Of a DNA stretch of 64,000 bases, positions 12,271 through 54,347 are shown piece after piece. The position numbers were made by a program, and so were the translations under genes. Every line of letters begins with the position of its first letter. Position 1 is the stretch's first letter. Under the pieces are notes generated by a model that ran no database searches, was not told the origin of the DNA, and saw only the letters and a program-made list of their open reading frames with translations. This DNA comes from a virus: the IMG/VR virus record IMGVR_UViG_3300045988_085140. One strand, given 5' to 3'.

Positions 12271-12313
12271 CAAAGATAGTAATTTGTTGGCAAACGGAAA
12301 CTTTATCCGTTAA
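12271..12313 (-). promoter_or_regulatory. late-type promoter: TTAACGGATAA element + 24 nt + TATCTTTG
   Basis: On the minus strand GGATAA is at 12308-12303 and the -7 box at 12278-12271. The gap is exactly 24 nt. Confidence 0.6.
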
Positions 12314-12326
12314 CTTACCACCTAAA

Positions 12327-12369
12327 TAAACGGATAAAATACGAATCTCGGATGGTATCTGTATCTTTG
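12327..12369 (+). promoter_or_regulatory. late-type promoter: TAAACGGATAAAA + 24 nt + TATCTTTG
   Basis: GGATAA at 12332-12337 and TATCTTTG at 12362-12369. Mirror partner of the minus-strand promoter. Drives the operon that includes the giant ORF. Confidence 0.6.
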
Positions 12370-12400
12370 TACCATTATTAATAATTAAATTTTCATATAT

Positions 12401-13060
12401 ATGATAGGTGCATTAATAGGTGCTGGGCTTGGGCTTGCAAGCAGTATTGCTGGCGGTATAGCTAACCGCAAGGCGAGACGTAAGCAGGAGCAGATGATTG
12501 CCCAGCAACAGAGAGAAAATCAGGCATGGTATGACAGAACATACAATACCGACCCGACCAAGCGTGCTGATACGGTTCGCTTGCTCACACAGATGCAGGA
12601 GCAGATTAAGAACCGCAACAAGGCTGCCAAGGGTAGACAAGCGGTAATGGGCGGTACGGATGATTCCACTACTGCGGTGAAGGAGGCAAACAACAAGACT
12701 CTTGCTGATACTACCTCACAGATTGTAGCTGCAAATGATGCCCGAAAGGATAACATCGAGCAGCAGTATATGAACAGAAAGAATCAGTTGCAGAACCAGC
12801 AGATGGGTATGGAAGCTGAGAAGGCTGCTGATACTGCCAATGCGGTTGCAGGTGTGGCTGGTACAGCTGCAAACATCGCTGCATCACTTGATAGTGGTGC
12901 TGGTAAGAGTAAGGTGGCTCGTCCTAACGTGGAAATGCCTACCGATGCAGAAATGGCTAAGTTGGATGCAAAGGTGGGTGCGGCTCCTACCCAGCAGCAA
13001 GTAGTGAATGATTTGAACAATATGATTGGTGACAATGCGCCAAAGAAGATTAAAGCATAG
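12401..13060 (+). CDS. Gly-zipper membrane-anchored protein (putative internal/ejection protein)
   Basis: N-terminus MIGALIGAGLGLASSIAGGIANRKARRK, then a Q/N/A-rich region. First gene of the giant-ORF operon. Confidence 0.5.
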   Translation: MIGALIGAGLGLASSIAGGIANRKARRKQEQMIAQQQRENQAWYDRTYNTDPTKRADTVRLLTQMQEQIKNRNKAAKGRQAVMGGTDDSTTAVKEANNKTLADTTSQIVAANDARKDNIEQQYMNRKNQLQNQQMGMEAEKAADTANAVAGVAGTAANIAASLDSGAGKSKVARPNVEMPTDAEMAKLDAKVGAAPTQQQVVNDLNNMIGDNAPKKIKA

Positions 13061-13063
13061 CCT

Positions 13064-14251
13064 ATGAAAGCATCAGATATGTTACGAAACAACAATGGCT
13101 TGAAGACTACACAGAGTGTGCTCAACAAGCAGCAGAGTGGGGTGGATGCCGCTCAGAAGGTGGCACAGACTCAGGCTCCAGTCTTCACCCAGCAGCAACT
13201 TGATGCGGCTGGAAAGAAGGTTGACCAGATGAATGCTGCTACTCCCACCGATGATGCTATGAAGGCGGCTAGGGCTAAGACTATCGCTACACAGCAAGCC
13301 ATCGCCAATGGGGTGGACGTGAATCAGGGAGTGCCTAGTGATGAGGAGGATAAACCATCTGTCCCTATCGTGAAGAAGGAAGAGCCTAAACCTCAGCCTA
13401 AGCAGTTGTCTTATGCTGATATGTATAAGATGCTGAATCCTGAACTGAATGAGACTGCTGATCAGAAGGCGAACCGAGAGAAGAAGGAACGTACCAAGGC
13501 TCGTATCGCAGCTCTGGGTGATGGTCTCCGTGCGCTATCCAATATCTACTTTGCTACAAAAGGTGCAAAGGTGGTACACAATCCTGAGTCGGATATGACT
13601 AAGGCGGTGAATAAACGCAAGGCATATATGGATGAGCAGAGAGAAAAGAATCGGGCATTATGGCTGGCTGGGTATCAGAGGGCACTCGCTCTTGATGAGG
13701 AAAAAAGAAAGAATAACCTGACTCTCGCTGAACTGGTGAGGTATCACGATATGCAGAACGAAATCAACAAGGTGAAGAATGGCCAAGGGCAGCAGAGAAT
13801 TGACCAAGGTAACAGAAGACTTGAACTTAGTGAGTTGAAATATACCAATGATGCCGAGTATAAGGATAATCAGTTGAAGATTAAGAAGATGCTTGCTGAT
13901 GGTCAGATAAGCCATTGGGCTGCTCAGGATGCACTTGCTAGACTGCGAGAAGGACGAATTTCTAATAAGGCTCAGAAATCTTCTGGCGGTAATCAAACTA
14001 CTGCTGGTTATTGGTATGAGTACTACGACCTGATGGACACTCCTGAGGGGCAGAAGAAGATTAATGAACTTAAAAGAAAGTTGAGAATCAAGAATGTTAC
14101 TCAGACTAACGTGAGATATATTATGGATAGATTGAAAGGAAGAAGTAGTTCTGCTGGAGGTGGTAAACCGTCTGGTGGCGGCAAGCATACAACACATAAG
14201 GCTGGCGGTTCTTCGGCTGGTGGCAAGAAGAAGACTGGCGTAAAATGGTAA
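13064..14251 (+). CDS. coiled-coil K/Q-rich protein with Gly-rich basic tail
   Basis: 395 aa. C-terminus SSAGGGKPSGGGKHTTHKAGGSSAGGKKKTGVKW. Lies between the Gly-zipper protein and the giant ORF. Confidence 0.5.
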   Translation: MKASDMLRNNNGLKTTQSVLNKQQSGVDAAQKVAQTQAPVFTQQQLDAAGKKVDQMNAATPTDDAMKAARAKTIATQQAIANGVDVNQGVPSDEEDKPSVPIVKKEEPKPQPKQLSYADMYKMLNPELNETADQKANREKKERTKARIAALGDGLRALSNIYFATKGAKVVHNPESDMTKAVNKRKAYMDEQREKNRALWLAGYQRALALDEEKRKNNLTLAELVRYHDMQNEINKVKNGQGQQRIDQGNRRLELSELKYTNDAEYKDNQLKIKKMLADGQISHWAAQDALARLREGRISNKAQKSSGGNQTTAGYWYEYYDLMDTPEGQKKINELKRKLRIKNVTQTNVRYIMDRLKGRSSSAGGGKPSGGGKHTTHKAGGSSAGGKKKTGVKW

Positions 14252-14291
14252 CAGAATTGGTAACAAGAATTTGGTAACAAACATATATATC

Positions 14292-17200
14292 ATGGCAGAA
14301 AGACCATTATACACTTTATACAAGAATCTGAAAGCACAGAACTATGATGTGCCTGATGATTACAATAAGTTTGAGAGTGCTCTGACAAGAGACGGAAAAG
14401 GTGGTGCGGATAACAGACATGCTATCTACGAGAACTTGAAGGCTCAGAACTTTGATGTTCCATCAACTTATGAGCGTTTTTACTCTGCACTCTTTGAACC
14501 ACGTAGTAAGACTTCATCTAGAGCGAAGGGCGGTAGTGTTCCTATGAGTGCTGCTGACCGTGCTCGTTTCTCTGCTGGGGCAGCAGCTATCTCGGCTAGT
14601 GCTCAGCAGACAATGAACAATGCTGGCAGATACAACAGACTGAAACAACGCAAGCAGAAACAGCAGAAGGATTTCGGTCGTGTGAACTTGGGTACACATC
14701 AGACTCCTTATGGTGGTGATGCAAACAATGTTGTGAAGGATGATTTTGCTTACAATCCTGAGACTGGCAAGACTGGCGCATACGTTACATCGGACAATGA
14801 GAATGTTTATTCTCTTCCTGAAGCTGAGCAGAAACAAGCTATTCTTGACCAGCAAAACAATGCATATCAGGAAGCGGTAGATACTGGTGAGATACCATCT
14901 GCCTTTGATGTTCGTGACAAGAAAGGTAACTATGACTTGCAGGATAACATCGGCAAGAATGGAACCTACCTTACTGAGGAAGGTGCTCAAAAGCAGTTTG
15001 ACAAGAAATTGGCTGATGCCTATGCCCGAAAGAAGGAGATTGAAGCTCTTATCGCTGAGGATAATCGCCAACACGGAAATCCTTTGCTCTCTTATGGTGC
15101 TAGTATCGGTGCAAGTAACGGAAGAACTGCTGAGCAGAGTGACTATAGAAATAAGTTGGCAACCTCTCTTTCTCTGGTTACTGAGCAGATTGGAGCGCTT
15201 GAAGCGGTGAAACAATATCCTACAAGTAGCTGGGGTGAGGATGCCTTGAAGGCTCTTGACAATACTGCATTTACTGCAAAAACATGGGATTTCGGTCTGA
15301 CTGACTTCGCTATCATGGGGCAGATGGAACGTATCAAGACAAAGATGGATAACAATATTCCTCTCTCTGGTTCTGATAAGATGCTCCTGAAGAGTAAACT
15401 TGGTGCGGATGCTGCTACGGCTATCGAAGATGAGAAGATGGGTAACGTCTATCGTTGGACGAAAATTGCAGGGAAGAGTCTCCCATTTATGGCTGACTTC
15501 TTCCTGACTGGCGGTTATGGTGGTATTACCAAGGGCATCAGTCGTGGAGCCTTGAAATTTGCTGCTAAACGTGGCATGGGCAAGGTGAGTGCTGCCATCT
15601 TGAAGAATACTGGTATCGTGGCTGGCGATGTTATCGGCTCGTATGCAATGGCTGGAACTGAGCAAGCGTTGAAGACTGGTGCTGACATCATGCAGCGACA
15701 TCTTGGTAATCTGTATCAGGATGAGAAGGGTGATTATAAGTTTGGTACTTTCGATGAGAATGGAAATCTTCTGCATGAGGGTGGTGAGTCTATTGGTACT
15801 GCTCTCTATAAGGGTATGACCTCTGCTATGGTAGAGAACTATACAGAAAAACTTTTCGGTCACAACTATGGTATCAAGAAGGGTGCTGTCAACTTCATGG
15901 AGAAACATGGTATGAATGCTTCTGCTGAGTTCTTCAAGAATATCGGCAAGAGTGGATGGTACACCAATTCCAAGAAGTGGATGGAGAAGTTCGGTATCAA
16001 TGGTTTCGCTGAGGAAGTGATGGAGGAGGAAATTGGTATTCCTCTTCATGCCCTGCTGGATGGTGAAGGTAAGGTGAGCGACCTTCTTGATGCTAAGCAG
16101 CAACTCGACATCATCGGTGGTATGGCTATCTCGGTCGGTTCTATGTATGCGATGGGTGCTGGCTCCCGACCAGTAAAAGGTATCTACAATCGTGCTCAGT
16201 ACTACCGATTCCGCAACAAGGTGAACGTGGCTGATAGTGATGCAGAGAACCTTATGGGCGATAACTGGGCAGACATCAAGGATAAGATAGACAACGCAAC
16301 TAATGAGCAGATGGGTAGTGTGCTGGCTGATATTCTCAGACAGAGAGATACCATGACCAAGGAACAGATTAATGCTGCTGTTAACTATGGTGTAAACCTG
16401 ATGAAGATGCGTGGCTACAATATTGCCAAGACTGCTGAAATGAATGCCAAGGAGATTACCAACGAACCAACAACACCTGAGGAGCAGCATCAGGCAGATA
16501 TTGACAACGCTTATTCTGAGGGGCATGATGCTGATGATGCAGATAAGCATGATATTCAGATTCAGCAGGAAGACCAGATGAAGACTCTTGCAGCAGCATT
16601 GGGTATCTCTGAGCAGCAGTTATCAGCCATGAGCGATGAGGAACTGGAATCCCTGACTGGGCAGGATGATAAACTTGACCAAGCTATCTATGACTACCAG
16701 TTGTCTTCTGCCCGATACCAAGGTGTGGTTGATGATGCACAAGATAAGGTTGACCTCGCTGCACATCAGGCAGAACAGAGAGTTGATATGTACACAGACC
16801 AGAGTCGTGGTTCTGTTCGTAACGCTACTATCAAAGCATCAGGCGGCTTGGAAGACTATGGTGTATATATTATCAGTGGTAATATTGCTACTCATGATGA
16901 TGGCTCCATTGATGTAAGCAATAGCGATGATATGATTCTCTATTATGACCCGACAACCAATAGCGTTGAACATGCTGATGCGTTGATGGTCGCTGAACTG
17001 GGTGAAGAACTACCTGCTGATGATGTGAAGGCTCAGGCGGTATCTGATGCTAAAGAGAATGCTATCAAGGAAGTGGCTGGCATCATTGATGGAACCGTTG
17101 AAGTTGGCTCCCAGTTCAATGTGACTGATACTGATGGTACTGAACATACCTATGAAGTGTTGGCTGACTATGGTGATGGTACTGCTGCTATTTCTATAGA

Positions 17201-20200
17201 TGGTAACGTGGTGGAGAATCCTTATTCGCTTGCAGACTTGCAGCAGATGAAAGACTTGGAAGACCAGAAGAGACTGGAAGCTGCCAAGGCTGAGCGTGAG
17301 CAGATGGAGAAAGAACGTGCTGCTCAGCAGAATCAGGAGACTGAGCAGACTCAACCTTCATTTGACTTCAATCAGATTCTCAATGATAATGGTAACGTGG
17401 TGCTCGTTGATGTGCTCGACAAGGATGGTAATACCAAATACCCTGACTCTAGATTATTCCTTATCCGTGATGCTGGTGCTAAAGCTAAGGTAGTTGAGTT
17501 GAAGAGTGATGGTACTCTTGTTCCTCATGCTGTGAACAAAGAAGATGTGGCTACAATCTCTTCTATGTCGCTCGATGAATACAAACAAGCTATGCCTGAA
17601 TCCTCAATGATTGAGGATAATAGTGGAGAGAATAGAGGTGAGATAGAGGTGGAAGCTCCGACAATAGAGGGCGAGGTCGCGGCTCCTGTTAATGAGGTCG
17701 CGGCTCCTGAATCTGCTGAGACTCCTGCAACTGAGCAGACTCCTGCTGCTCCTGCCATTACTCTTGAAGATGGAACCATCGTGCCTATGCTGGAGGATGG
17801 CAATCCTGACTTCTCGAAGCTGACTGCCGCACAGACTGCTGAGCTATATGATAATCAGTTTGGTGAGGATGCAGATAGTATCGTATCTGGATATGTGTCT
17901 GATGCAAAGAAGGCACTCGACAAGGCTAGCAACATGACCGTGAAGGGCAAGACTTTCGTGGAACAGAAGGCTGCTAAGGATGCCAAGGAGAAGGCTATTG
18001 CTGATGCTAAGGCGGCTTATGACTCTGCTATCGCTATCCGTGATGCTTATAATGAGCGACAACTTGCCAAGGTGGAAGATACTGCTGAGGGTAGAAAGGA
18101 ACTCATTGAGAAGGCAAGAAGAAAGTTCGCTCGCTTGAAGAGTGCGGTGAAGGATGATGCTGAGGCGGTGGCTCAAATCTATAAGGAGACGGTTGGAACT
18201 CTGCTGCATCGTCTGTATGATGGTACTGGCATTGACGTGACAGATACGATTCCGCTTACTGCCGAGGAGTATGTGGCTAGTAACCTCGGTGCTCACTCTC
18301 TCAACTATGAGGGAACAGAGACAAGTAAGGGCGTTAAGCAGGAGACTGGATTGAGTAGAGAAGACTTTGCCAAGACTCAGTTGCTCGCTGCTGATGGCAA
18401 TGGAACTACTATTGATGAGCTCGTTCATAGTCTGTGGGAGAATCGTCCATCCAACCTTGAATCACTAGACACTCAGGATATTCGTAATGCTCTTATCAGT
18501 GTACTCAATAGCGGTTTCAAGGCATCGGAAGCAAGGAATTTTGTTGAAAATATTCGCATTGCTCAGGCAGAGAACATACTTGAAGAGCAGAAACGTGCTC
18601 AGGAGAATGCAGCCTATGCTGAGCAGCACAAGGCTGAGCAAGAGGCCGAGTTGAAGGCGAAGTCGGATGAAAAGGCTGAGTTGAAGGCGAAGTCAGAAGC
18701 GAAGTCGGATAATGAATCGGATAATAAATCTGATGATTTGTCTAATGAAACGGATAATGATAAGATAAATGACAATATAAATGATAATATAAATGTTCCT
18801 GAGGATGCTACTGATGAGAATCCTTTAGGCGCAGAGCGTGATGAATCTGACCTTCCTTTCTCTACCAAGGAGAATGGCAAGCAGCAGACAACTGCCGAGC
18901 GTGCTGCTGACGTAGAGAAGAATAAGGTGGATGATATGAAGGTCGTTGACAATATCGTGGGCGAGAAGACTCGCAAGGCTTTCGAGAGACTGGCTAAGAT
19001 GATGGGTGCTAACATTCAATGGCAGTACTCAGACAAGTTGGGTAACGGCTGGATTCAGGAGACTACGGATGCCGATGGCAACGTTCATCGTACAATTTTC
19101 ATCACTCTTGACTCTTCTATCACGGAAGGTGCTCAGTTTATCTTCGGTCACGAAATGACTCACCAAATCAAGAACCTGAACCCTGCTGCATACAATGAGT
19201 TGACTCAGCTTGTGCTTGATACCTATGGCTCTGATGCCTTCGACAAGGCGGTAGATGAGACTATGCAGAGATATTCCGATGCAGGATTCTCTGGACGTGC
19301 TAGAGATTACTATGCTGAGGAGGTTGTTGCTGATGCGGTAGGCGAAATGATTCGTGACCTCAACTTGGCTCATACTCTCGCCATGAAGATGTCTCATCCT
19401 CTGCTCGCTGCTATCCATGAGATATTACAGAAGATTAAGTTGGCATTCTTTGGTACTGAGTATAGCGATGTGACCAAGAACATCATCCGCTCCATTGAAC
19501 AAGCATACGTGAAGACTGCCAATGGTCAGGTGACAAACTCCGAGACTGGCGAAGATGTTTCATTCTCTCTACGTCAAAAGCCTGAACCTAAGAAGAAGGG
19601 TATCGGATATAAGGTATTTGTGCTAAAGGATGGTAAACTCTATCCTCCGATGGTAGCGAACCCTGACGGTGCAGAAACCCCAGTCGGTGTGTGGCTCGAT
19701 GCTGATGCGGCTCCTATTGCTGGAGAAAGCAAGACTGGCAGACCTCAGGTTAAGCAGGGCGGTAAGGGAACACAAGGGGGTAGCGGTAAGCTAGCCTATA
19801 GACCAGGCTGGCATCTTGGTGTCGTGCCTTACGCTATCCAGTTCAATCGCAAGGATGCTGAGGGCAACAAGACTCTCTTCCCAAAGAACTTCGTTTTCGC
19901 TGAGGTGGAGTATGCTGCTGATGTAGATTATCAGGAGGAAGCTCGCCAAGAGGGTATCAATCCATCGGGCAAGTATCAGCATTCATTGGCTGGCTTGAAA
20001 CATCTGCCTACTGATGGATATTATATGTATCGTACCAACCCGAACCCTGAGACTGACCCTTGGGTGATTACTGGTGCGATGAAGGTGAACCGTATCTTGA
20101 CCAGAGCAGAGCAAGCGGAACTTGTGAAGAACGCTGGTCGTGAACCTCAGCAGATTCAGGAGGGCGATATTGTTACTGATGATGTCGTGAACAGCATCAA

Positions 20201-23200
20201 TCAGGAGATAGCTGATGCTCCTAAGTTCTCGTTGAAGGATAATCAGGAGAATCCTCTGAATCAGGATGGTACTTTGAAACTGGATAAGATTAAGTCCGTT
20301 GATGAATTGACGGATGAAGACTTCACTAGTGCCTTTCGTAATGTAGAGCTTCCTGCTATACCAAAGAATGTGGATGCTGCTATAGGGGCAAACGGAAAGC
20401 CTATTGTTATCAAGAAGAATATTTTTGAGAAGAATTGGAATGCTCACAAGTTTACTCCTGCTGAAAGCAAAAAGGTATTGAATGATGCTTTATACAATAC
20501 TGATTTAGTAAGGCACACACAGCCAACAAAGAAGCCTAACCATTGGGTTGCAATCAAGTTGGATGATAAAAGTCCTATCACCGTGTTGGAAGTAAACGAC
20601 AACAAGAATAATGTTGAAGTTGTTGGTTGGTATACACTTGATGAAAGAAATCTTGGGAGAATAAAAAGACAAGCTGAACGAAATGGCGGCGAACTCATTA
20701 TGTTAACTCCTAAAGATGATAAGGTGGAAAGCCTTTCCACTCCTCCGCTCAGCTCTGCTGCAAATATAATCAATTCTTTTGAAACTACCAAGGAAAATGG
20801 CGAAAAAGTTGATGTTGAGGGCACAAAATTCTCATTGAAAGATGAAGAATACCTGAAAGCGGTGGAAGATGGCAATATGGAAAAGGCTCAGAAGATGGTG
20901 AATGAAGCTGCTGATGCTGCTGGCTATTCTACAGATTCCAGCTATCAAGGTACATCTGCCTTCAATGGTGCTGCACCTTGGGGTAATGGTTACTTCTTGA
21001 CAAAGGACGAACGCAAGGAGGCATGGGATAATGGCGAGTTTGAAGGTGAATCAACTCTTGGTGATTATATCAATGATGATATTGATGGCGGCAACTTGGA
21101 GGAGTTGACTAATGCCGCATCTTATCGTGCAGCTGACCCTATGCGTAAGGAGGCTATTGATAACGTTCGTAATGCTATTCAGAAGAAAGCTAAGACTATT
21201 ACAATGTATCGTAGTGTTCCTTCTGATGTGAAGGAAGGTTCTTTCCGAAATGGTGACTGGGTTACTCCAAGTCGTGCTTATGCTGTTGATAATGCAAAAT
21301 TGCATGGATGGGGTGACGATTACAACATCATCGAACAAAAAGTTCCTGTTGATGATGTGTGGTTTGATGGCAACGATATTGCAGAATGGGGCTATGGTCG
21401 TGAGGAAGATTATATCAATGATACAGACTTCGCCTATAAGAACAGCAAGAACAACAAAAAGTTGCTTGATGCCGTTACCTATGATGATAATGGTAATGTG
21501 ATTCCTTTGTCTCAGAGATTCAATGAGAAGAATAAGGATGTGCGTTTCTCTTTGAAGGATGAAAAAACTCTTGCAGGAGTGCATAACATTACTGAGGAGA
21601 AACTGAGAAAGGCTTTGAAGCTGGGTGGCTTTGCCAATCCTTCTTTAGCTGTAATTGATACCAACAAGACTGGTCACGACAACTTTGGAGAGATTTCCTT
21701 CATCGCTCCTTCTGCCCTTTTGGATAAGCGTACTGGCAATACTGGTGGTACATGGATAACTGATGCCTATACTCAGCGTTATCCTTCCGTAGAGCGAGAA
21801 ATGAGCGAAAAGGGGTATCGGAAGTTTGAAGACTGGGTTGATAGCCTTGATTACCCAAGTGGAGCTAAGGCTGAGATTGAGAGACAGGCAAAGGATGCCC
21901 TAAGTGACAATAATGCTCCTGCTTGGGAGTTGATGTACTTGAAGGAAAAGGGTATTGATATTAAGGAGTATGATTCAAGAATTGATTATCGCTGGAAAGA
22001 GATTATCAGTGACCATCCTACTGCCGAGGATATTTTGAATAGTATGAAGACTGACCCTGAACTGAATGAAAAGGTTACAAGTCTGGCTAAGCATGCCATC
22101 ATCCATCCTACTTGGGAAAAGGTTTCTTTGGAGGTGAGAAGAAAGATGTATAAGGAGACTGGCGTTAAGGCTAGCCCTATCAATCCACAAGTAAGAAAAC
22201 AGACTAAGGAAATCTTTGAGCGTGACTATGCGCCAACCTTGCTTAACAAGGACGGCAGTCCAAGAAAAAAAGATGTGAAGAAGGTTGTTGAGGATATTGT
22301 GAAGGAACATAAAGATACCAAGAAGTATGACTTCTATCTGTCTAAGGTGAAGGCTAGTAATTACGTCAACAAGAATGGTCTTTATGATGATTACATCAGA
22401 TGGCAGGAGAACAAACTGGATGAGTTCGGAACGAAGAACCGTATCTTCCGTGGCTATACTAGGGATGGTTCCCGAAAGTATGTGCCTGAGACTCTTGAAA
22501 ATGTTTCAAAGGCTATGAGGGAAGAAGCAGATGGGCAGACCAATGGAAGCGAATATACCTCGTTTGGTAGCTTTATCGCAAAGTTGGCTAGTCGTGTTGA
22601 TTCTACAGACGAAATGCGTGCCAACAAGGATAAGTTGTCTTCTAATAAGGATAAGGAAGAATTTTACGAGAAATGGAGTGATGTTTATTATGACCTTGCC
22701 AAGTTCTTGTATAATGATGTGTTCTATGGTGAGCAGAGACTTCACGATATTGTATTGCAGTCTGACCCTAAGAAGTATGCCAAGAAAGAATATGGCATTA
22801 CCCTTACTCCTACCTTCATGAAGAAACTGGATGCCTTGAAGAATGCAGTACAGACAGAGTTGAAGAGTGCGTACTTTGAGACTAAGTACAACAGACCTCT
22901 CCGTCTAAACGAGTTTGCTGCTGCTGTGGTTCCTGATAACTTGGGCAAAGATGTACGCAAGGGTATAGAGAATGCTGGCTTACCAATGTATGACTACGAC
23001 CCGAATAAGGAAGGTGACCGCAGTCGTGCTTTCAATGAAGCTATCAATAGTAGCGACAATATCCGGTTCTCTCTCGCTGGTGTGCGTGGTGCGGCTGCTG
23101 CTGACAAGGCAGAGGAGCGTAATGCTCGTATGGATAATCTCTCCGTGGCTCGCAAGATGGAAGAAGAGAAGAAAGATGCCAAGGCTATCAAGATGGCTAC

Positions 23201-26200
23201 TGGATGGGAGCGTGGTGCTGATGGCAAGTGGAGATACGAAATGCCTGATGCCAAGATAAAGGACACGATGGACGTAGGCGGTGGACACATCGTTAAGCGT
23301 TACGAGGATGATATGCTCTGGAATGGCGGCAAACTATTTGATGTGATTGATGCACCTGAATTATTTAAGGCTTATCCTCAGTTGAAGGGTGTTCGTATTG
23401 ATACGGATGCCATTATGAACGATATGCCTTCACATGGTGAATATGATTCAAAAACCAACACCATAACCATTCATGCTGATGAGTTGAAATATATGAATGA
23501 CATATTGAATCACGAGATTCAGCATGCTATTCAAGGTATTGAGGGATTTGCCACTGGAGGTAGTCCTACAACTATTAGAGGTGAAGTCAAGAAGAGGTTT
23601 AATGAGGTCACAAAACAGATTAAGCAGCTACGAGCAGAAGGTAAGGAAGATGAGGCGAAGGCTCTCATAGAGAAGAACAGAGGTCTTTATGATGCCTACA
23701 TGAAGAATGATGATTTCAATAGCTACAAGTCACTTGCTGGCGAGGTGGAGGCAAGAAATGTGCAGGAAAGAATGAACATGACTCCTGAGGAGAGAAGAAA
23801 AACTCTCGCTGAATCTACTGAGGACGTGGCTCGTAAAGACCAGATTTTCTTGGGTGTGGGTGATGTGTCCTTCTCCCTCCGTGATATGGCTGACGGAAAG
23901 GAGAGTGGGGCGGCAGATATGGCTGAGGATTTGAAGAGTCTGAACACTCCTGATGAGGTGGATGATGCTATCAAGACTGCTATTGAGGATATGCCGAGCG
24001 GCTGGAAGATGGCTAACAAGAAGATGATTCATATTGCTCAGGCTCTGGGCGAGAATCGCAAGGCAGAGATTGCTGGCGAGGAACCTAAATTCTCCCTGAA
24101 GGATGGCACTCTCATTAAGGCTGGAACATACTTTAGCGGTGGCGGTCTTGTTGAGGAAGGCTTGAAGGGTATCATCGACCCAGTGGTGGCAGTGGAGTAT
24201 GATGAGAAGATAAGCGGCGTATATCGCAACAATTTCGGGCAGCACATCGTTACTGCTGATGTTCGTGATGTTGACCCTAAGGAGTTGGTTAAGCAGATAG
24301 ATGGCGAGGTGGAGTACTTCCATGCCAGCCCAGTCTGCAAGAACTACTCTCAGGCAAAGAGTAACCATGCTGAGGTGGAACTTGACAAGGAGACTGCTGC
24401 TAGTACTGCCGAGTTTATCAATGCTATTAAGCCAAAGGTTGTGACCATTGAGAACGTGAAGGGATATAAGGATTCCGAAGCGATGAAGACTATCACCGAT
24501 GCTCTGGATGCCAACGGCTATACTTGGGATGCAGATGTGTATAATGCTGCTGACTATGGCGGCTACACAAACCGAGAGAGATTGATTGTCCGTGCGGTTC
24601 GTGATGGTAAACTTCCTGCCAAGCCTGAGAAGATGGCACGCAAGAGCGGATGGTATGAAGCTGTGGCTGATATTATCCCGACCTTGACAGAGAAGAAGAA
24701 TGGTGTGGCTCCTTGGATGGATATTCGCTTGAAGGCTGATGGCATTGACTGGAGAAACATTGACAAGCCATTGTATGTGATGGGTAGTGCCTATGCTGAC
24801 GGCAAGGTCCCTCATGCCTTCGCTGATGAACTGCTGCCAACACTCAGAACGAAGAGTGGTGATGTGATTGTGATGCCTGATGGTAAGGTATATCGTGCCA
24901 TGGGAAGAGTGCTCGCAAGAGTATCAGGAGTGAGCGATGATTACAAGATGCCATTCTCCGAGAACCTGAGCCATATCATCATCGGCAACGGAATCCCTAC
25001 CCAGTTGACGGAACATGTGATTGCTCCTCTGCTTACTGGCTCTGACCCTAAGTTTAGCATCCGTACCTATCATGGTACTGGTGCTAGCTTTGACAAGTTC
25101 GATTTCAGCCACATGGGTGAAGGCGAAGGTTCACAAGCATTTGGATGGGGTGGTTATGTTACTAACTCTAAGGATATTGCTGAGGACTACACAAGACGTG
25201 CCAAGATAAGGAAAGATAATGACGGTTTTGAATTTGTGACAGATATGTCTGCCAATAACAAAGATATGGTAAGACAATATATCTATAAATATAAAGATGT
25301 AAACAAGGGATTGGATGCTATGAGAAAAGACCTTTCTTCTGCTCTAGAAATGTTCCCTGATGATGATGATTTAAAGGAACTTAGCAATATTCTTGCAAAG
25401 AAGAATGAGGAAATAGCTGTTCCTGATAATATTGCTTATCTTTATGATGTGGATATTCCTGATGATAATGGAGATTATCTTGACTGGGAGAATAAACTGA
25501 AAAAATCTCATTTGAATAAGGTAAATAAGGAGTTGGTTAGAATAGGCAAGGAGCCTATTGAGACCATTTATCCAAGTCGTGTTGATGGTAAGGTAAGAGG
25601 TCAAGACTTGTATGATGAACTTTCCTCTATGCTTGGTTCTAAAGAAGCAGCTAGTAAGTTGTTAAGTGATGCTGGCTTTGTTGGAATCAAGTACCCTGCT
25701 GGAACCATTTATGGCGGTGCAGAGGAAGGCGATTACAACTATGTGATATTCGATGAGACCAATGCCAATATCGTGGGTAATACCCGATTCTCCTTGCGCT
25801 ATGACCAGTTTGAGCACGACCTGAACCAGTGGAAGAAGGATAATAATCTGCCAAAGGATGCTCAGAGGCCAACCATCCCACAACGCAACGCTGGTGAGAG
25901 TGCCGTTGACTTCCTGAGGAGAGTGGACGAGTACCGCAAACAGATGGCTCTGTGGAAGACTGCTCCAACCTACGAGCAGCATCTTCTAAGTGATGATACT
26001 GCCCTTGGAGAGTTCAACCGAGAGTTGCAGCGTGGTTCTGTTCTGAAACGTATCGCCTTCCAAGATAGTATGCTGGCTATCCGCAAGGCTCAGGAAGCTA
26101 TCATGAAGGAAGTGGGTGTTGACCGTCTGAACATGGCTGAGGATGCCTATACTGCCGAGAACCGCAGTCACGGCAAGGGAAAGAACGAGTTTGAGGAATA

Positions 26201-29200
26201 CAATAATGAGTTCTTGCAGCCATTGAGAAAGGCTTATCATCAGATGAAGAAGATACTGGGTGACAGCTATGATAATGTCCGTATCTACATGATGGCTAAG
26301 CATGGCTTGGAGCGTGATTCTCAGATGGCTTTCAAAAAGTCTCTGGAAGCTGACTATGAGGACGTGGCTCAGAGAAGTGCAGCATATAAGGCTTACAAAG
26401 GCGATATGAACCGTATCATCAATGATAGCGACTTGGAGTTTGGTAGAGTAGACTTCACTACTTGGAGACAGAGAGACAATGCACTCAGGGCGAAATATTC
26501 TCCATCTTATATGAACTATCGCTACGACAAGAATGGTATTGCCTACGATTACTCAGGTTTGTCTGCTCTCTTTGACGGCTCAGACTTTGAGGAAGCTGCC
26601 TACAAACTGGTAAAGGATATTGAGGATAAGTATGTAACCGAGACTCACAACCTCTGGGATGCAACGAATGCGGCTACCAAGAAGATTCTCCGTGATGGCT
26701 ATAAGGCTGGCATGATGAGCAAAGATACTTATCAGTATGTGCGTGATATGTATAGCCATTATATTCCTCTCCGTGGCTGGTATGGCACTACTGCCGACCA
26801 AGTATGGGACTATATTGGTGGTGGAAAGGGTGCGTTCAATCAGACCTTGAAGAAGGCACACGGACGAACCTCTATCGCTGATGACCCTATCGCCTACATC
26901 GAGAATATGGCAGAGAGTGGAATCCTGCTGAACAACAAGAACTGGGTGAAACAACACCTGATGCTCTTGGCTCAGAATCATCCAACTTCCCTGCTGACCC
27001 TGAGCAAGGCTTGGTATGTGAAGAGTACGGATGCCAACGGCAACGAGGAGTGGATTCCTGCTACACCTCAGATTACTTCTCAGATGGATAGCAATCAGGT
27101 GAAGGCTGCCATTGATGCTTTCGAGAAGAAGATGGAGCAGATGGCTCAGGCTGGCGATGCTACTCAGAAGAGAGACGGATTGAACATAGCCTATCCTCAG
27201 ACTCACAGCGAGGAGAGAGAACATGAGGTGCGAGTGATGAAGGATGGCGAGGAATATGTTATCTATGTGAATGGTGACCCTCAGTTGGCTCAGGCGATGA
27301 ATAATACCAGAGCACACCGAGTAAGAGAGATTCAGAGCGGTAAACTTGATAGGGCTGCTGCTTGGTTGGGCAGAAAGATGGCTGCTGCCTATACCAGTCT
27401 TTCACCTCTCTTCATTCCTTCCAACTACTTCCGAGACCTGACCATGACGCTGGCATCTACAGCTATCCGTGAGGATGCAAAGTACAACTATCTGCTCAGA
27501 AAGAATCTGGCTACCTCTTGGAATCTCGGATTCATGCTGAGAGATTTTCAGAACGGAAAGTTGAGAGATAAGGTAAACAACGGAAACGCTACACCAAAGG
27601 AACAGATGTTCTATGACTTCATGATGAATGGTGGTGAAACTGGCTTTGTCTCTTCGCTTGACGTGGAAGACTTGAAGAAGAAATTCAAGAACGACTTGAA
27701 GGATTTGGATAGATGGAAGGCGAACCCAGTAAAGGTAGGACATACCATTATGGATAGCATTGAGTTCCTGAACAGAGCAATTGAGGATAGTAACCGATTT
27801 GCGGTTTACATGACCTCCATTCAATATGGGCGTTCTATTGATGAGGCTGTGAATGATGCCAAGAATGTAACATTGAACTTCAACCGCAAGGGTACTGGCG
27901 AATATGGCTGGCAGATGATTAGAAACCTCTATCTCTTCATCAACCCAGCAGTACAGAGTTTGCAGACTTTGGGTGCGCTTGCTAAGCATCATCCATTCAA
28001 GTTCACGGCTGTTACTGCATCGTGGTTGGCGAGTGGTGTACTGGTTCCTATCGTTAACGCTGCCCTGATGAGTATGTTGGGTGGTGATGATGATAAGGAT
28101 AAGTACTGGCAGTTCACCAAGTGGGATAGAAGAAACAACCTGATTATGTGGGTTCCGTTTACTCATGAGTATGTGAAGATTCCGCTTGCTCAGGAGTTCC
28201 GTGCCTTCTATGGAATAGGCGATATGATTGCATCTAAGATGATGGGTGGCGAGTTGGCTGAGGAAAGTTGGAGCCAGTATGCAGAAGATTTGCTCGGTCA
28301 GGTAGTGGATATGCTTCCGCTTGACCCTACTGGCTATGATGGCAATATTGCTGTCAGTCTGATGCCGAATGCTATTCGACCAGTCTTTGAGTTGGCTTTC
28401 AATGTTGACTTCACTGGCAAGCCATTATTCAAGGACACAGAGTACAACAAGTATGACCCTAACTTTACCAAGGCATACGTGGGCACTCCTGATTGGTTGG
28501 TTCGTGCATCAAGGATGGTTAACTCAATCGGAAACGACTATCCAGATGTGCAGCAGAACAGCATTGATGCTTTCGGTGACCCAAGATACAATCTGAATAA
28601 CCCTGCTGTGGTTGACCATGTATTGTCTTCTTATCTCGGTGGTGCTTACACCATGGGCAGTCAGGTGCTCGGTTTGCTTACCAAGTCGCTCAATGACCCG
28701 AAGGAAATTAAGGTGGCTGATATTCCATTATTCAGTAAGTTCGTCAGCAATCCTGATGATAGACCGGTTACTAAGAAACAAGGTGATGAGTTCTGGAATA
28801 TGAAGGAGAACCACGACCGTGCAGCCAATACCCTGAGCAAGTTGAAGAAACAAGCTAAGGTGGATGGCGATTACTCAATGCTGGAGCGGTTCTACGGCTC
28901 AGAGGAGTATAAGAAGTACAAGCAGGATGATGTGAAGGTGAAGAAGTATGAGGAAGACAAGAAGAAGGAACGTGCTGAGGAGAGTGGGGAGGAGTATAGA
29001 CCTCACAAGTTGAATGCCGAGGATATATACAAGGCTCATGCTACTCCGAAGGATGATTTCGAGGACTTGAAGCTGAAACAACTCTACACCAAACTGAACG
29101 GATTCAAGACTTCCTATGACCTCTTGGTTGATACGGCTCCTAGTCAGAGCGATGGCTACTACAACAACAACAAGGCTGCCATTGATGCCATTGACGAGAT

Positions 29201-29622: not shown

Positions 29623-30105
29623 ATGAGAAAAGAAGAAGACGAAGACCAACGGGTCAGGAATTTGTTTAGAGAGATAACTAAGTTACTCCCTGAACGCAGC
29701 AAGATTAAGACGGACTTGCTTTATTTCAAGTATGCGCCTATATTGGTCATGCTTTTCAGATGGTATAGTGTATCTCAGTTCTACGACAGCAAGATGGAGA
29801 TAACGCTGTGGTATGAAGAGAACGAGGAACCTATCTGGTTCTTCTACTTCATCACTTACATTCTTTACCCGATTTCTCTTTGGAAAGGTCAGGTACTGCA
29901 CAGATTGTGCGTGGAGTGGAGAATACCGCTCTTATATGCAGCAGGAGTCAACGTAATACACATCATGTTCGGCTCTATCGTTATCACAAACAATATGTAC
30001 TATTGTGATATGTTCCTGATTACAATCATTTTAATTTTATATACTTATGTCGCAATTAGTAAATTACAGCATCATCGAAGCTGGACTTCGTGCTCTCGCA
30101 GATAA
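29623..30105 (+). CDS. multi-pass membrane protein, hypothetical
   Basis: 160 aa with several hydrophobic segments (IWFFYFITYILYPISLW, MFLITIILILYTYVAI). In an AT-rich island after the giant ORF. Confidence 0.4.
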   Translation: MRKEEDEDQRVRNLFREITKLLPERSKIKTDLLYFKYAPILVMLFRWYSVSQFYDSKMEITLWYEENEEPIWFFYFITYILYPISLWKGQVLHRLCVEWRIPLLYAAGVNVIHIMFGSIVITNNMYYCDMFLITIILILYTYVAISKLQHHRSWTSCSRR

Positions 30106-30418: not shown

Positions 30419-30562
30419 AAGTAGCTACACATTTTATATATATAGGAGAGACCCAATCGCCCCTCCTGTATATTTATGACCTTTTCCGTAACCATAAATC
30501 TTTGCTCATCAAACACTTATATAATCTTTTACGAGTTTATCTATCTCTATCCATATTATTCG

Positions 30563-30570
30563 TATCTTTG
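30563..30570 (+). promoter_or_regulatory. -7 box TATCTTTG
   Basis: Consensus TAnnTTTG ~60 nt upstream of ATG 30629. No GGATAA element is present. Confidence 0.45.
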
Positions 30571-37671: not shown

Positions 37672-37684
37672 TATTAATAATAGA

Positions 37685-47072: not shown

Positions 47073-47167
47073 AGAAAGGAGGTGTTTTTATCGTAACTGT
47101 ATTTGTCTGATATTCAGATAGCTACAGAAATATCTACGAGTTTATGGTGCTGCGTTTAAGATATTCG

Positions 47168-47175
47168 TATCTTTG
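47168..47175 (+). promoter_or_regulatory. -7 box TATCTTTG
   Basis: Consensus box 30 nt upstream of ATG 47206. No GGATAA element is present. Confidence 0.45.
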
Positions 47176-47205
47176 CAACATCATAAACTTTTAATTTGTA
47201 TAGGT

Positions 47206-47691
47206 ATGAATTTCGTAGATTTCGTAGAAAAGTATCAGCAGGAAATGGCTCCTGAACAGATGTTGGCTATAGCTAAGGCAGTCGGCAAGTATCTCTCATG
47301 CAAGTTGAGCGATGTGGAGGAGCATCATCTTTGTGCGATGGTGTATGGTGTGTTGAGCGAAGAGCATTTTGATAAGCACTTTGCCGATGATGCTATCAGC
47401 AAGATGTGGTATGAGGATGCTGACGGAACCAAGCACATGGCTCCCTTCTTCTCGGACGATGAGATAAGAGAAGCCTTTGACAAGCATCAGGATGATATTT
47501 CTGACTATACCATCTATGACTTGGCGGTAACTATGAATCTGCTGAGGAGTGACCATCATCTTCTGCTGGAGCGATATAGCAATGATGCAGAGGAGTTGAA
47601 GGAAATGGTGGTTTTGATGGCTATCGAGTATCTGCAAGACCCTGACTGCTTGCATCCTACCAGCAAAATATGGCACACAATAAACGGATAA
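47206..47691 (+). CDS. hypothetical protein
   Basis: 161 aa from the ATG (MNFVDFVEKYQ). Table start 47173 is a TTG inside the -7 box. The stop codon is part of the next promoter element (AAC GGA TAA). Confidence 0.55.
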   Translation: MNFVDFVEKYQQEMAPEQMLAIAKAVGKYLSCKLSDVEEHHLCAMVYGVLSEEHFDKHFADDAISKMWYEDADGTKHMAPFFSDDEIREAFDKHQDDISDYTIYDLAVTMNLLRSDHHLLLERYSNDAEELKEMVVLMAIEYLQDPDCLHPTSKIWHTING

Positions 47692-47723: not shown

Positions 47724-47753
47724 CATATTATTAATAATATATAAATATAAGAT

Positions 47754-50086: not shown

Positions 50087-50111
50087 ATAGCAAAAAAATA
50101 TTTATCTAAGT

Positions 50112-50954: not shown

Positions 50955-50956
50955 AA

Positions 50957-53878
50957 TTATCTGAGTTTATTTTGTAATCTTGTTTGGAATTCTGTAGATA
51001 GTGCGCTGATAGATTCTTTTGGGGCAAGATTGCCCATAAGCGCAAGCCTGAAATATTTGTATGGCGAACCGACAAGGTTTCTGAGATACATATTTACAGA
51101 AGAACCAACGTAATACCAATTAGCTAAATCATTACTTCCAAACAGAACCGTTTCACACTTTCCTGCCTGAATGCTGCTGAAATATCCTCTTGTAATGCAA
51201 TCGAACATGGTCTTATAGGCATCCTGACCAAGCGTTAAAGGACGGCTAGATAGGAAGAATGGAACATTCTCTGTTGGCTCCTTCACATACACATCGAGTA
51301 TGTTTCCTGCTTTGTCTGTAGCGTATGACTCTGGATATATGTTTACTCGCTTGTTGAAGACATTGTGCATGGTTCCCCACATCTTGCTTTTCAAAGAGTA
51401 AACGTAAGCATAAGTATAGTTTGGGTTGAACACTATGATACGGCTATCGTAATAGTCGTAAATCATATCAGCTTCTTCGAGATACTTACGGAAACGGACA
51501 TACTTCACATCTGACTCAGGAATATTACCTAGTGCAAGGAGTTTATTCGGATAGGTCTTATCCTTTGTTGAATGTGAATAAATGGATAGAAAATCGAAAG
51601 GATAATCATCCAGTACATCGGTAAGACAAACAGACTCTCTTCCTTGCTGCATCATGATTCCTCGCTCTGTCGGGAACAGAACTGCATCATCAATCTGCAA
51701 AATGCCTTTAGGGTTGGAGCAAATTTCACGTAAAGCTGGTTGTCGTGACTGATATGTTCCTGTATCAGTCAACATGACTACCCATACACCTTCATCGGTG
51801 AATGCGTATATTGGAGCATCACCAAATTGACCTTCGCTGATTGGTCGGGTGTTGGCGGCTAGTGCGCTGATGATAGAAGAACCTACCTGAACAGAATTTG
51901 CTGCTGGGAATACCAAAGGATTCTCGGCTTCGCTAACCTTTATGACGTTTGGATGCTGTGTGATATATTTTTGGCTCACGACATTACTTAAAGCAGCATC
52001 GTATTCTTCCTTGGTTATCTCTGTGAAGTCACCTGTATCTATTGGTGTGTTGTCCCAATAATATGAAGATGAAATGACCGTTCCACCTTGATTTCCAAAA
52101 CTACCACCTCCATTACTTCCTGCTCTCGTTGTTCCACCTGATGAATCCTTTTTAAGGAGTTTATGGCGGTATATTTGCATGAAAGCAGGAAGACCAGCAT
52201 CATCGTGATATAGGTACATGTAATCAGACAACTCAGCTTTTTCTTCTTCTGTAGGCGCATCAACTCTTCCTCCAAAACCTTGATTATCCAAAGAACCAGA
52301 AGATTGTCTATCAACTGCGATAGGAGTGGTACGATTCTTACTGATATTGATATAGTAAGACATACCGAATGTATCGGAAGGCTTTAAACTTACCCTCTTG
52401 GAATAATACTTGTCATACTTCGGTAAGTGAAAATAGATAGTCATTGCCGTAGCAAGCGTGTTGGGATATGCCAAGATAGGGCAGATAGGATATTGCAGTT
52501 TCCCCTTGTGGTATATATCTCGTTTGATGCTATTTTCGCTGATGCTTACCTTGAAGACTGCATCGCAAATATAATCGGTGGTAGCGGTGCTACTAGTTGC
52601 AACATCTACATACTCATTTAGGCATAGCTGTGCATTTGAAATTTTTCTCTTGGAGAAAATATCTGTATCGAAAGCATTATAGATGGTCTTCTTTACGTTT
52701 CCTATATGCAATCGGTTGTTGTATGTTATAGAGCACTTGCCTCCAAAAGTGTCTCGCTTGAAGTCTGCCAAAGAAATACTTTCTCCTGTCTGTAAAACTC
52801 GTTTGAGTTGTATATCTGTGCCTAGCTTTTCCTTGCTGATACTGGCACTTAGATAGAAGGATTTGTTTTCAAACGACTGATAAATATCTTCCTCTGACAA
52901 ATATTGGAAGGCATCACAATTCACACCTGATGCCATTTTGTTATTCCAAAGAAAACAATTATTTCGTGAAATACCTCTAGTTCTTTTTTCTGTATCAATA
53001 AAAGATTCAGGCTGGGACAGATAAACATCTACACCAAGAATAAGGTCTTCCAAGCCTTCGGGTATATCCATGCTGACATTTATGGTGTGGGTGTGAAGAC
53101 TTGTGCTTGTGCCTACAGATTTCTTTTCCTGATACCAGATAAACTTATTGAATGATGTTTCAGGCGCAAGGATGAATGGATTTGATATATTTATGTGTGA
53201 GGTTCCATCATATAACTTGATAGCCAATACTCCAAAAACTGTATATTTGAAGTACTCCTTGCCTTTTTCGTTTAGTCGTTTGTTGATAAGTGAATCAAAT
53301 GCGTTGAATATGATAGATGCGCCTTTGAGAGAAGTATCTACGTTATTATTAAAGTGTCTGTTCGTCTCAAAAGCATTATCCCAATCATCGCCAAGGTTGA
53401 TTGATACATCACATTTATCAGACTTAACATTGGTGATTGTTGCACTATATCTAAGTGAAGAAAGGTCGAAACTTGTGTAGTTGCTACCTTTCCAATATGC
53501 GTACATTGTTTTCTCGTCACCTATGAAACATAAGATATTGCCAACTGCTGTGACGGCATTGACGTGGAATCCGTTGAGGTTGATGGTGTTCTTGGTTCCG
53601 TCTCCACTTTTCTCTAGCCAGTACCAAGTATCATCTGATTTACGGATGATGTAGTGAGAGTGAATCGTTTCATCGTGTGTTACCTTATGAACCAGTTCTA
53701 TTGTGTCTCCTGAATCCAGCGTGATGTTCTGCTCTACTACTACTGGCTGGTGAATAGGGTGGAGTGCCCCATCCTCGTTGATGAGGTTGAGGCAGGTTGC
53801 CAACTCCCCATCCTGACAATCGTAGTCGGATGGAGAGTGGGTAAGCCCTTTGAGTATTACTTCTTGTCTTGTTGCCAT
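50957..53878 (-). CDS. large virion structural protein (tail/nozzle-type)
   Basis: 973 aa. N-terminus LKGLTHSPSDYDCQDGELATCLNLINEDGALHPI resembles podovirus tail-tube/stabilisation proteins. Assignment mostly by size and context. Confidence 0.5.
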   Translation of the reverse strand: MATRQEVILKGLTHSPSDYDCQDGELATCLNLINEDGALHPIHQPVVVEQNITLDSGDTIELVHKVTHDETIHSHYIIRKSDDTWYWLEKSGDGTKNTINLNGFHVNAVTAVGNILCFIGDEKTMYAYWKGSNYTSFDLSSLRYSATITNVKSDKCDVSINLGDDWDNAFETNRHFNNNVDTSLKGASIIFNAFDSLINKRLNEKGKEYFKYTVFGVLAIKLYDGTSHINISNPFILAPETSFNKFIWYQEKKSVGTSTSLHTHTINVSMDIPEGLEDLILGVDVYLSQPESFIDTEKRTRGISRNNCFLWNNKMASGVNCDAFQYLSEEDIYQSFENKSFYLSASISKEKLGTDIQLKRVLQTGESISLADFKRDTFGGKCSITYNNRLHIGNVKKTIYNAFDTDIFSKRKISNAQLCLNEYVDVATSSTATTDYICDAVFKVSISENSIKRDIYHKGKLQYPICPILAYPNTLATAMTIYFHLPKYDKYYSKRVSLKPSDTFGMSYYINISKNRTTPIAVDRQSSGSLDNQGFGGRVDAPTEEEKAELSDYMYLYHDDAGLPAFMQIYRHKLLKKDSSGGTTRAGSNGGGSFGNQGGTVISSSYYWDNTPIDTGDFTEITKEEYDAALSNVVSQKYITQHPNVIKVSEAENPLVFPAANSVQVGSSIISALAANTRPISEGQFGDAPIYAFTDEGVWVVMLTDTGTYQSRQPALREICSNPKGILQIDDAVLFPTERGIMMQQGRESVCLTDVLDDYPFDFLSIYSHSTKDKTYPNKLLALGNIPESDVKYVRFRKYLEEADMIYDYYDSRIIVFNPNYTYAYVYSLKSKMWGTMHNVFNKRVNIYPESYATDKAGNILDVYVKEPTENVPFFLSSRPLTLGQDAYKTMFDCITRGYFSSIQAGKCETVLFGSNDLANWYYVGSSVNMYLRNLVGSPYKYFRLALMGNLAPKESISALSTEFQTRLQNKLR

Positions 53879-54300
53879 GTGCTCGAATTTAAGTTTGGTC
53901 GCATGATTTCATAAAAAGGTTCGCCTTTGGCTGACTTGCGTGGGATGCAAGTCAGGCGAACCATTCTGTTGAGAGGAAGGTTGTACTCATCAAGGATGGC
54001 GGTGATGGAAGGGTAGTCACTTCTGAAACCTACCTTCTTATGCTCCTGATTGAACTGAAGCTGAGCGAAGGCGGTGTTGGCTTTGCGAAGTTCTTCCCAG
54101 TCCTCACGCATGCAGAATCCGTATGTACCTCTTTCAGATAACCTGAACACGAAGATGGAATTGTCTGTTCGCTCCTTCTGCATGATGTGGTCGTAGATGC
54201 CCTTGGAGAGCGTGACCGAATTGGCTCTTCCGTCCAGTACCACAAAATCGTTGCGGTGTCTGAAACCATTGACTTTATCTATTAAATACTTGAATTTCAT
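53857..54300 (-). CDS. hypothetical protein, first gene of the leftward structural operon
   Basis: 147 aa with an ATG 5 nt downstream of the -7 box region. Overlaps the next gene by 22 nt. Confidence 0.5.
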   Translation of the reverse strand: MKFKYLIDKVNGFRHRNDFVVLDGRANSVTLSKGIYDHIMQKERTDNSIFVFRLSERGTYGFCMREDWEELRKANTAFAQLQFNQEHKKVGFRSDYPSITAILDEYNLPLNRMVRLTCIPRKSAKGEPFYEIMRPNLNSSTWQQDKK

Positions 54301-54304
54301 GTTG

Positions 54305-54347
54305 CAAATATAATATGAAAAGTGATAAAATGGATATTATCCGTTAA
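54305..54347 (-). promoter_or_regulatory. late-type promoter: TTAACGGATAAT + 24 nt + TATATTTG
   Basis: On the minus strand GGATAA is at 54342-54337 and the -7 box at 54312-54305. The element contains the stop of the upstream gene (AAC GGA TAA). Confidence 0.6.

Follow-up and report, generated by a model that had tools for sequence, protein, structure and literature searches.

What marks the virion and lysis operons of a temperate gut phage, dispersed over both strands, for expression? The question is raised by IMG/VR virus record IMGVR_UViG_3300045988_085140, a stretch of 64,000 nucleotides (nt), here called the window, which covers nearly the whole genome of a temperate phage infecting gut Bacteroidales. 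One conserved word, (T/A)AACGGATAA, marks six of its virion and lysis operons and stands exactly 24 bases 5′ of a host-type -7 box. This word is most likely the docking site of a late-gene activator, and the six sites, termed P1 to P6, are probably activator-dependent late promoters with the geometry known as class II. "Late" and "promoter" are labels derived from gene content and geometry, and we infer from sequence the role of the sites in initiation, activation as opposed to repression, the timing, and the identity of the reader.

A fixed word and spacing before six operons

The pattern GGATAA-N24-TAnnTTTG was found six times in the window (0.04 expected), and the more demanding pattern WWAACRGATAA-N24-TAnnTTTG was likewise found six times (0.00 expected). 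When spacer lengths of 10 to 40 nt were scanned, matches appeared at 24 alone. A preliminary description of this DNA, made by eye, had placed the six GGATAA sequences and claimed an exact 24-nt spacing; all six positions are correct, and the spacing is as described. By an order-3 Markov model, no 10-mer of the window is more over-represented than AACGGATAAA (6 observed, 0.2 expected). All six sites precede virion or lysis operons (Table 1), with P1 and P2 arranged back-to-back. The six sites have different spacers and flanks and so do not represent one duplicated cassette. All had been called intergenic, which holds for four; the other two lie over the stop codon of an upstream open reading frame (ORF). 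In P5 the word's TAA terminates the ORF at 47173-47691, and in P6 it terminates the zinc-ribbon ORF that ends at 54337, so that the word reads AAC-GGA-TAA at the ends of both ORFs, as had been noticed.

Table 1. Coordinates of the six putative promoters, the associated palindrome, and selected genes of the window (aa, amino acids; HTH, helix-turn-helix)
Feature	Position	Strand	Description	Target
P1	12271-12313	-	TTAACGGATAA (12313-12303), N24, -7 box TATCTTTG (12278-12271)	~102-aa protein (ATG 12251), homologous to BF1-TP2 gp71 (annotated DUF5681) and BKO1-TP3 gp58
P2	12327-12369	+	TAAACGGATAA (12327-12337), N24, -7 box TATCTTTG (12362-12369)	T7 gp14-like internal virion protein (12401), 395-aa protein, 5035-aa giant ORF
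P3	37685-37727	-	TAAACGGATAA, N24, TATCTTTG	333/559/418-aa fibre-like cassette
P4	41146-41188	+	TTAACGGATAA, N24, TAATTTTG	scaffold-like protein, major capsid protein, two small proteins, portal
P5	47681-47723	+	TAAACGGATAA, N24, TATCTTTG	87-aa protein, endolysin, three further genes
P6	54305-54347	-	TTAACGGATAA-T, N24, TATATTTG, then CAAC, then ATG of the 147-aa gene	p147, 973-aa and 280-aa structural proteins
Palindrome ATTATTAATAAT	12374-12385 (P2), 37670-37681 (P3), 47727-47738 (P5)		starts at ~+1	
cI-like HTH protein	5767-6168			
Tyrosine integrase	7167-8378			
123-aa ORF	30047-30418	+	C-terminal half resembles, by eye, an excisionase-type (Xis/HTH_17) helix-turn-helix	
p147	53857-54300	-	basic 147-aa protein; first P6 gene	
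Zinc-ribbon ORF	54337-54597	-	87 aa (CxCxCG...SCGC); inserted between orf98 and P6	
orf98	54602-54898	-	last conserved gene of the leftward early operon; homologue of the BKO1-TP3 gp31 family	

The shorter 8-mer ACGGATAA is more widespread, with 13 copies in the window against ~1 expected, or 2.2 under the order-3 Markov model. The preliminary description had reported one copy beyond the six sites, at 8446, which would make 7 instead of 13; it overlooked six intragenic copies, at 17468(-), 18750(+), 36283(-), 38303(+), 41940(+), and 42782(-). None of these six is followed by a -7 box 24 nt downstream. The copy at 8446, which lies upstream of the integrase gene in inverted orientation, is probably not a member of the system: it is kept in one relative (L025) and reads GCTGATAA in another (L016). 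An imperfect 17-bp inverted repeat (TATTGTATACCTACCTG ... CAGGTAGGTGTATAATA, 8395-8510) flanks this copy just upstream of the integrase gene and may be an attP or int-regulatory region.

In P2 to P5 the spacer holds a purine-rich GGA/GAA patch (cGGAt, tGGAg, cGGAa, gGGAa) ~12 to 15 nt 3′ of GGATAA, at spacer positions 12 to 16. The patch is also seen in diverged alleles of P2 to P5, and P1 and P6 have none. No Rfam family was found at the promoter sites. We found no terminators flanking the junction of early and late genes, and no terminator-like site stands out between 46000 and 57000. A scan for the pattern covered 185,579 genomes (596 Gb); the matches listed were single ones scattered over many unrelated phyla. 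By our estimate this fits chance for 15 specified bases in 596 Gb and is uninformative on usage by the host.

Conservation among relatives and other words in distant phages

No near-identical phage was found in GenBank. The capsid protein is 59% identical to those of the Bacteroides temperate phages BKO1-TP3 and BS-TP4 and 42% identical to that of BF1-TP2. Portal relatives are encoded in 404 IMG/VR stretches, the 80 best at 97 to 100% identity, and the family is very common in human-gut data. The promoter pattern itself occurs in at least 119 IMG/VR stretches, often two or three times per contig, and most of these are human-gut contigs of 60 to 67 kb.

Eighty loci were chosen for comparison by portal homology and not by the motif, which avoids ascertainment bias, and P3 to P6 were located in them through the proteins encoded downstream. 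Among unique alleles of P3 to P6, the mean per-position entropy was 0.086 bits for the 11-mer TTAACGGATAA and 0.045 for the -7 box; for the same alleles it was 0.53 in the 24-nt spacer and 0.69 in the 25 nt upstream. Diverged alleles have rewritten spacers and flanks and keep both the word and the N24 spacing. The variants tolerated in relatives, AACAGATAA, AATAGATAA, and AATGGATAA, always stand at N24 and all keep GATAA, which is therefore the invariant core. These comparisons support the view that the word is a promoter-linked element held in fixed phase by strong purifying selection.

More distant phages use other words. BKO1-TP3 and BS-TP4 contain no ACGGATAA-N24 but carry GTAAAAAGATAA(A/C)-N24-TAnnTT(T/C)G before the scaffold/capsid, lysis-side, and giant-ORF operons. 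Since they keep the geometry with a different word, the core common to the family is GATAA at about -41 to -37. BF1-TP2 has CCCCATAAC(G/A)ATAAAA in several late intergenic regions and in both orientations (L204, 39160-39180; L205, 10995-11060); one copy stands at N26, and the geometry of the others is not evident. One BF1-TP2 copy is just 9 nt before a start codon, where its role may differ from that of an upstream promoter element. BF1-TP2 also encodes a DnaA C-terminal-domain protein, gp44. We found no description in the literature of this motif or of late-gene control in temperate Bacteroidales phages, and the paper describing BKO1-TP3, BS-TP4, and BF1-TP2 has nothing on promoters.

The lineage words are ACGGATAA in the window lineage, AAAGATAA in BKO1-TP3 and BS-TP4, and AACGATAA in BF1-TP2. 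That phages sharing a host genus have different words at a like position speaks for phage-specific, co-evolving readers rather than for the conserved host polymerase. This bears on the idea that the host alone reads the word, as an UP-like or extended upstream element or as a binding site for a host regulator, for instance DnaA, with late timing set in some other way. Such a reading, which we hold to be about as unlikely as the sigma-based one discussed below, would explain why the search for a phage reader came up empty, and it would suit Bacteroidota promoters, in many of which the -33 element is dispensable (PMC6847099). The reverse complement of the word, TTATCCGTT, moreover begins with the DnaA-box-like TTATCC. 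It matches the DnaA box TTATCCACA at only 6 of 9 positions, however, where a DnaA box would show at most one or two mismatches with the CACA half included; that half, essential for DnaA binding, is unmatched, and the counterparts of this sequence in relatives are TTATCTTT and TTATCGTT. Constitutive host-read promoters in front of lysis genes would, in addition, presumably be lethal to a lysogen.

Position relative to polymerase and comparison with known systems

In Flavobacterium, the -7 box is numbered T-12 A-11 ... G-5, and transcription starts 4 to 5 nt downstream of it (PMC6847099). We applied this rule to number the -7 boxes of the window and to predict their transcription start sites. 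On that numbering, GGATAA occupies -42 to -37, and the 11-mer occupies -47 to -37, centred at about -42. The -7 box TAnnTTTG is present at all six sites and nearly invariant in relatives. A -33 TTTG, sought 19 to 21 nt upstream of the -7 box, is present at none of the six, and P1 has only TTTC there. The word had been said to occupy the place of the -33 TTTG; the absence of TTTG stands, and the word itself lies just upstream of that place. With the predicted start sites assumed, the conserved word falls near -41.5, abuts the -35-type region, and keeps an invariant 24-nt spacing in the window and in relatives, as do class-II activator sites.

We therefore favour, as the most economical reading for lysis genes that must stay silent in a lysogen, positive control from a class-II position. 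In this proposal, host RNA polymerase with its primary sigma factor would read the ordinary -7 box. The usual -33 TTTG is missing, and recognition would be completed by a sequence-specific protein bound to (T/A)(T/A)AAC(G/A)GATAA at about -47 to -37, abutting the place of sigma region 4. The rigid 24-nt spacing would hold the factor on one face of the helix, at contact distance from polymerase. The factor would most likely be phage encoded and come from the leftward early operon, which can be followed from the immunity region (~5611) off the window at position 1 and back in at 64000 to its end at 54337, and which therefore runs straight into P6. A lysogen lacking the factor would keep its virion and lysis genes silent until induction.

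Other promoters of the window have a different build. The early/lysogenic promoters at 5679(-) and 8855(+) are canonical TTTG-N20-TAnnTTTG. The word had been reported as absent from the promoters at 8855, 30563, and 47168, and it is. The latter two belong to a second class on the + strand, at 30531-30570 and 47136-47175, of the form ACGAGTTTAT-N22-TATCTTTG; its targets are an operon that begins at 30629 and a gene standing alone at 47206-47691. Both promoters carry an upstream word, TTTT(A/G)CGAGTTTATC, that is conserved in 70 relatives; 32 nt separate its ACG from the -7 box, just as they separate the ACG of ACGGATAA from its own. A DUF7841 protein is encoded in both second-class transcription units (32813-33271 and 47173-47691). 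Judged by these sequences, the phage seems to use at least three promoter classes. Located 4 nt past the -7 box at 30563 is a perfect 12-bp palindrome, CGTAACGTTACG (30575-30586), which 70 relatives have kept and which might serve the second-class (class-B) promoter as an operator.

Another palindrome, ATTATTAATAAT, bears on the sign of control. Its three exact copies in the window are all at P2, P3, and P5, with 4 matches against 0.44 expected when one mismatch is allowed, and it is conserved in relatives. It could be an initial-transcribed element, a 5′ untranslated-region element, or an operator. Lying at ~+1 of three promoters, it would suit a dimeric repressor, and a protein bound at -47 to -37 could occlude polymerase; the word might then be the operator of a phage repressor that keeps constitutive late promoters off. 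We consider such negative control very unlikely. The missing -33 suggests that the promoters are intrinsically weak, and a word in strict phase with the -7 box points to activation more than to occlusion. The immunity region, moreover, has an inverted repeat of its own, TTGCTAA...TTAGCAA, which we read as its operator and which is unrelated to the late word.

The preliminary description had proposed a phage-specific late-promoter code read by an activator or a sigma-like factor. The code finds support in that the word is conserved, restricted to virion and lysis operons, absent from canonical early promoters, and lineage specific; the sigma-like factor did not materialize among the ~70 window proteins scanned. 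A phage alternative sigma factor, or a MotA/AsiA-like pair that appropriates sigma, might nevertheless read the word as a -35-type element with the -7 box kept. The GATAA half is non-palindromic, and the strict orientation and fixed spacing to the -7 box are typical of sigma-read elements; the -33 TTTG is absent as well. We regard this explanation as unlikely. With 24 nt from GGATAA and 32 nt from ACG, the word's spacing exceeds by 4 to 5 nt the N20 spacer between -33 and -7 in the phage's own early promoters, and no Sigma70_r2/r4, MotA, or AsiA-like domain was detected among the proteins scanned. The middle promoters of T4, read by MotA/AsiA, resemble the present sites in that a phage word replaces the -35 element, host sigma recognition of the -10 element is kept, and the spacing is fixed. 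In established T4 biology, though, the MotA box is centred at -30 and not at -42, 11 to 13 bp from the -10 element, while the word described here ends 24 nt 5′ of the -7 box. Promoters read by phage sigma factors of the SPO1 gp28 and T4 gp55 type are no match either, having a non-host -10 element where the host-type -7 box is kept here.

The closest parallels to the activator reading are the class-II systems: Mu Mor at Pm; Mu C at Plys, PI, PP, and Pmom; CRP and FNR at class-II promoters; and lambda cI at PRM. All keep a host-type -10-like element next to a poor or absent -35-like one, as here. The likeness extends to an activator site that abuts or overlaps the -35 region at about -42, to dispersed late operons sharing one word, and to a reader expected from an earlier operon. 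The present sites differ in their Bacteroidota -33/-7 grammar and in an asymmetric GATAA half with a variable left half, where Mor and C have dyads, and no Mor/C homologue was detected. P2 Ogr, P4 Delta, and 186 B invite comparison because a small activator is postulated for several temperate late operons and a small zinc-ribbon ORF stands beside one promoter. The Ogr-type sites, however, are TGT-N12-ACA dyads centred at -55; there is no such dyad here, and the zinc-ribbon ORF is dispensable in relatives. Antitermination of the lambda Q type is not matched by six dispersed promoters on both strands with the word upstream of the -33 position. Lambda Q acts at a single late promoter, where the element that it binds lies between -35 and -10, and a terminator is read through. 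In temperate phages of Gram-positive bacteria, the unrelated small proteins RinA, ArpU, and LtrC activate packaging, morphogenesis, and lysis operons (PMC3753634, PMC3152322). They would share with the proposed system a regulator gene at the junction of early and late genes, but they usually serve one late operon from one target promoter, as opposed to six dispersed promoters of fixed geometry, and no homologue of them was detected.

Several observations weigh against activator dependence. The -33 element is weak genome-wide in Flavobacterium (PMC6847099), so that a missing -33 is, taken alone, no proof of it. Late-looking operons at 41106(-), on the TerL side, and at 30563 and 47168 lack the word, which is therefore not the sole late signal. 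The TerL-side packaging operon had been credited with a degenerate version of the word (CGGATGC, 21 nt from the -7 box); this is not conserved in diverged alleles and is probably due to chance. Nor can one factor readily serve the divergent promoters at 41106(-) and 41181(+), whose centres are ~15 bp apart, not a whole number of helical turns. Seven copies of ACGGATAA lie outside promoter context against ~1 to 2.2 expected, a mild excess that is unaccounted for. Finally, searches of Pfam, PHROGs, and NCBIfam with ~70 window proteins detected no known activator family.

Candidate readers and the putative p147 junction promoter

Those searches found no sigma, Mor/C, Ogr, or RinA-type domain among the ~70 proteins scanned, with some tiny ORFs and large structural genes lying outside the scan. 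Three candidate readers had been named earlier, of which one survives. The zinc-ribbon ORF is absent from three loci with 99% identical portals that keep the motif (L192, L194, and L196); it is ~50% identical in nine other motif-keeping loci and belongs to a large, unnamed family, one member of which matches the Pfam CapR homology domain. No relative was found in the PDB. From its distribution, the gene appears to behave like a mobile insert between orf98 and p147 in otherwise near-identical phages; its last codons nonetheless supply the AAC-GGA-TAA of P6. The 267-aa ORF at 8981-9784, which has a weak MarR-like match, is part of an accessory block that varies; L025, L016, and L114, all of which keep the P1/P2 pair, lack it. 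The 123-aa ORF was found in 70 of 70 loci, with an identity of 90% or more; it has no Pfam or NCBIfam match and no homologue in the GenBank relatives, and is a possible reader.

Two further proteins come from the junction itself. The products of orf98 and p147, both basic and always adjacent, are the only small non-structural proteins that this phage has in common with BKO1-TP3 and BS-TP4 at the early/late junction, and the gp31 family to which orf98 belongs is always directly upstream of a p147 homologue. The case for orf98 as the reader is weakened by its only remote relatives, Listeria-Bacteroides surface repeats, which have no DNA-binding fold. The corresponding place in BKO1-TP3 (gp32), BS-TP4 (gp28), and six further lineages is taken by p147 homologues; a close homologue is found among the annotated proteins of Prevotella hominis, and a single p147 cluster comprises 2,940 sequences. 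An AlphaFold2 (AF2) model of p147 reached a predicted local distance difference test score (pLDDT) of 75 and a predicted template modelling score (pTM) of 0.70 with a deeper alignment and a pLDDT of 40 with a shallow one. Its best-shaped PDB matches are plant B3 DNA-binding domains, 7et6 (probability 0.77, TM score 0.50, E value 0.2) and 5os9, none of them significant, and its matches in a viral library are uncharacterised proteins throughout. The model hints faintly at a B3-like (B3/EcoRII-N pseudobarrel) DNA-binding fold, which in solved B3 domains is an open barrel of seven strands with two helices. Kinship with the neighbouring AbrB-like gp33 of BKO1-TP3 was rejected (hhalign probability 0.4%), as was the idea that the N terminus of the 973-aa protein is a fused gp33. 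Conservation together with the motif, position, and the faint fold make p147 a weak candidate reader.

The promoter of p147 has a build of its own. Homologues of p147 in the window lineage and in eight BKO1-like lineages are preceded by word-N24-(-7 box)-N4-ATG. The BKO1-like version is AAAAGTTAAAC-N22-(-7 box)-N4-ATG, that is, GTTAA-N24 with equal geometry, and its AAAAGTTAAAC overlaps the Val-Lys-Ser-stop codons of the gp31 homologue. Exactly 4 nt separate the -7 box from the p147 ATG in two lineages whose proteins are only ~33% identical (window 54300-54312; L326, L328, and L410-L413; BKO1-TP3 16170-16246). With the start-site rule applied above (PMC6847099), this spacing predicts that the mRNA is leaderless, with the A of the ATG as its first base. 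By its sequence, the junction promoter is a conserved, slightly different member of the putative set. Conceivably, although we rate it as unlikely, p147 represents a new family of phage transcription factors that would bind GATAA asymmetrically at about -42 and stand in for -33 recognition by the Bacteroidota primary sigma. It would be made at first by read-through out of the early operon and then from its own leaderless promoter (GTTAA or GGATAAT), giving a positive-feedback commitment to late expression.

The remaining genes of the window include those for a Rha/KilAC protein, ERF and PD-(D/E)XK recombination proteins, NinB, capsid, portal, and endolysin. The P2 operon (12401-29378, +) encodes a trio of 219-aa, 395-aa, and 5035-aa proteins; because the first is a T7 gp14-like internal virion protein, the trio looks like a podovirus-type set of ejection proteins whose giant third member is DarB-like. 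A tRNA gene at 3863-3941 (-) scores 53.8 bits in Rfam; ARAGORN leaves its type undetermined and reports an anticodon of four bases, "tatg". The ~1.1 kb of the early operon around it (3100-4200) contain no convincing ORFs. In the region 62750-64000 (-), the signal for a C-5 cytosine methylase is limited to a 133-aa ORF at 63473-63874 that covers profile positions 99 to 227 of 324. Further short ORFs lie nearby, and the gene may be in fragments or cut by the edge of the window.

The principle at work is classical, a phage word combined with a host -10-type element and read by an activator or an appropriated sigma factor. Set apart from that principle are the promoter grammar of the host, the word itself, its strict 24-nt geometry, and a reader that is probably new. 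The 43-bp architecture gives a direct handle for finding the switch protein and a signature by which metagenome annotation can recognize late operons and prophage activity. It is also a potentially orthogonal, tight off/on promoter for synthetic biology in gut Bacteroidales, and the lineage words ACGGATAA, AAAGATAA, and AACGATAA at a like position suggest several mutually orthogonal pairs. If p147 were indeed the reader, a late-gene switch would be described for the first time in Bacteroidota phages, and p147 would provide a ready orthogonal pair of promoter and activator for engineering Bacteroides or Prevotella.

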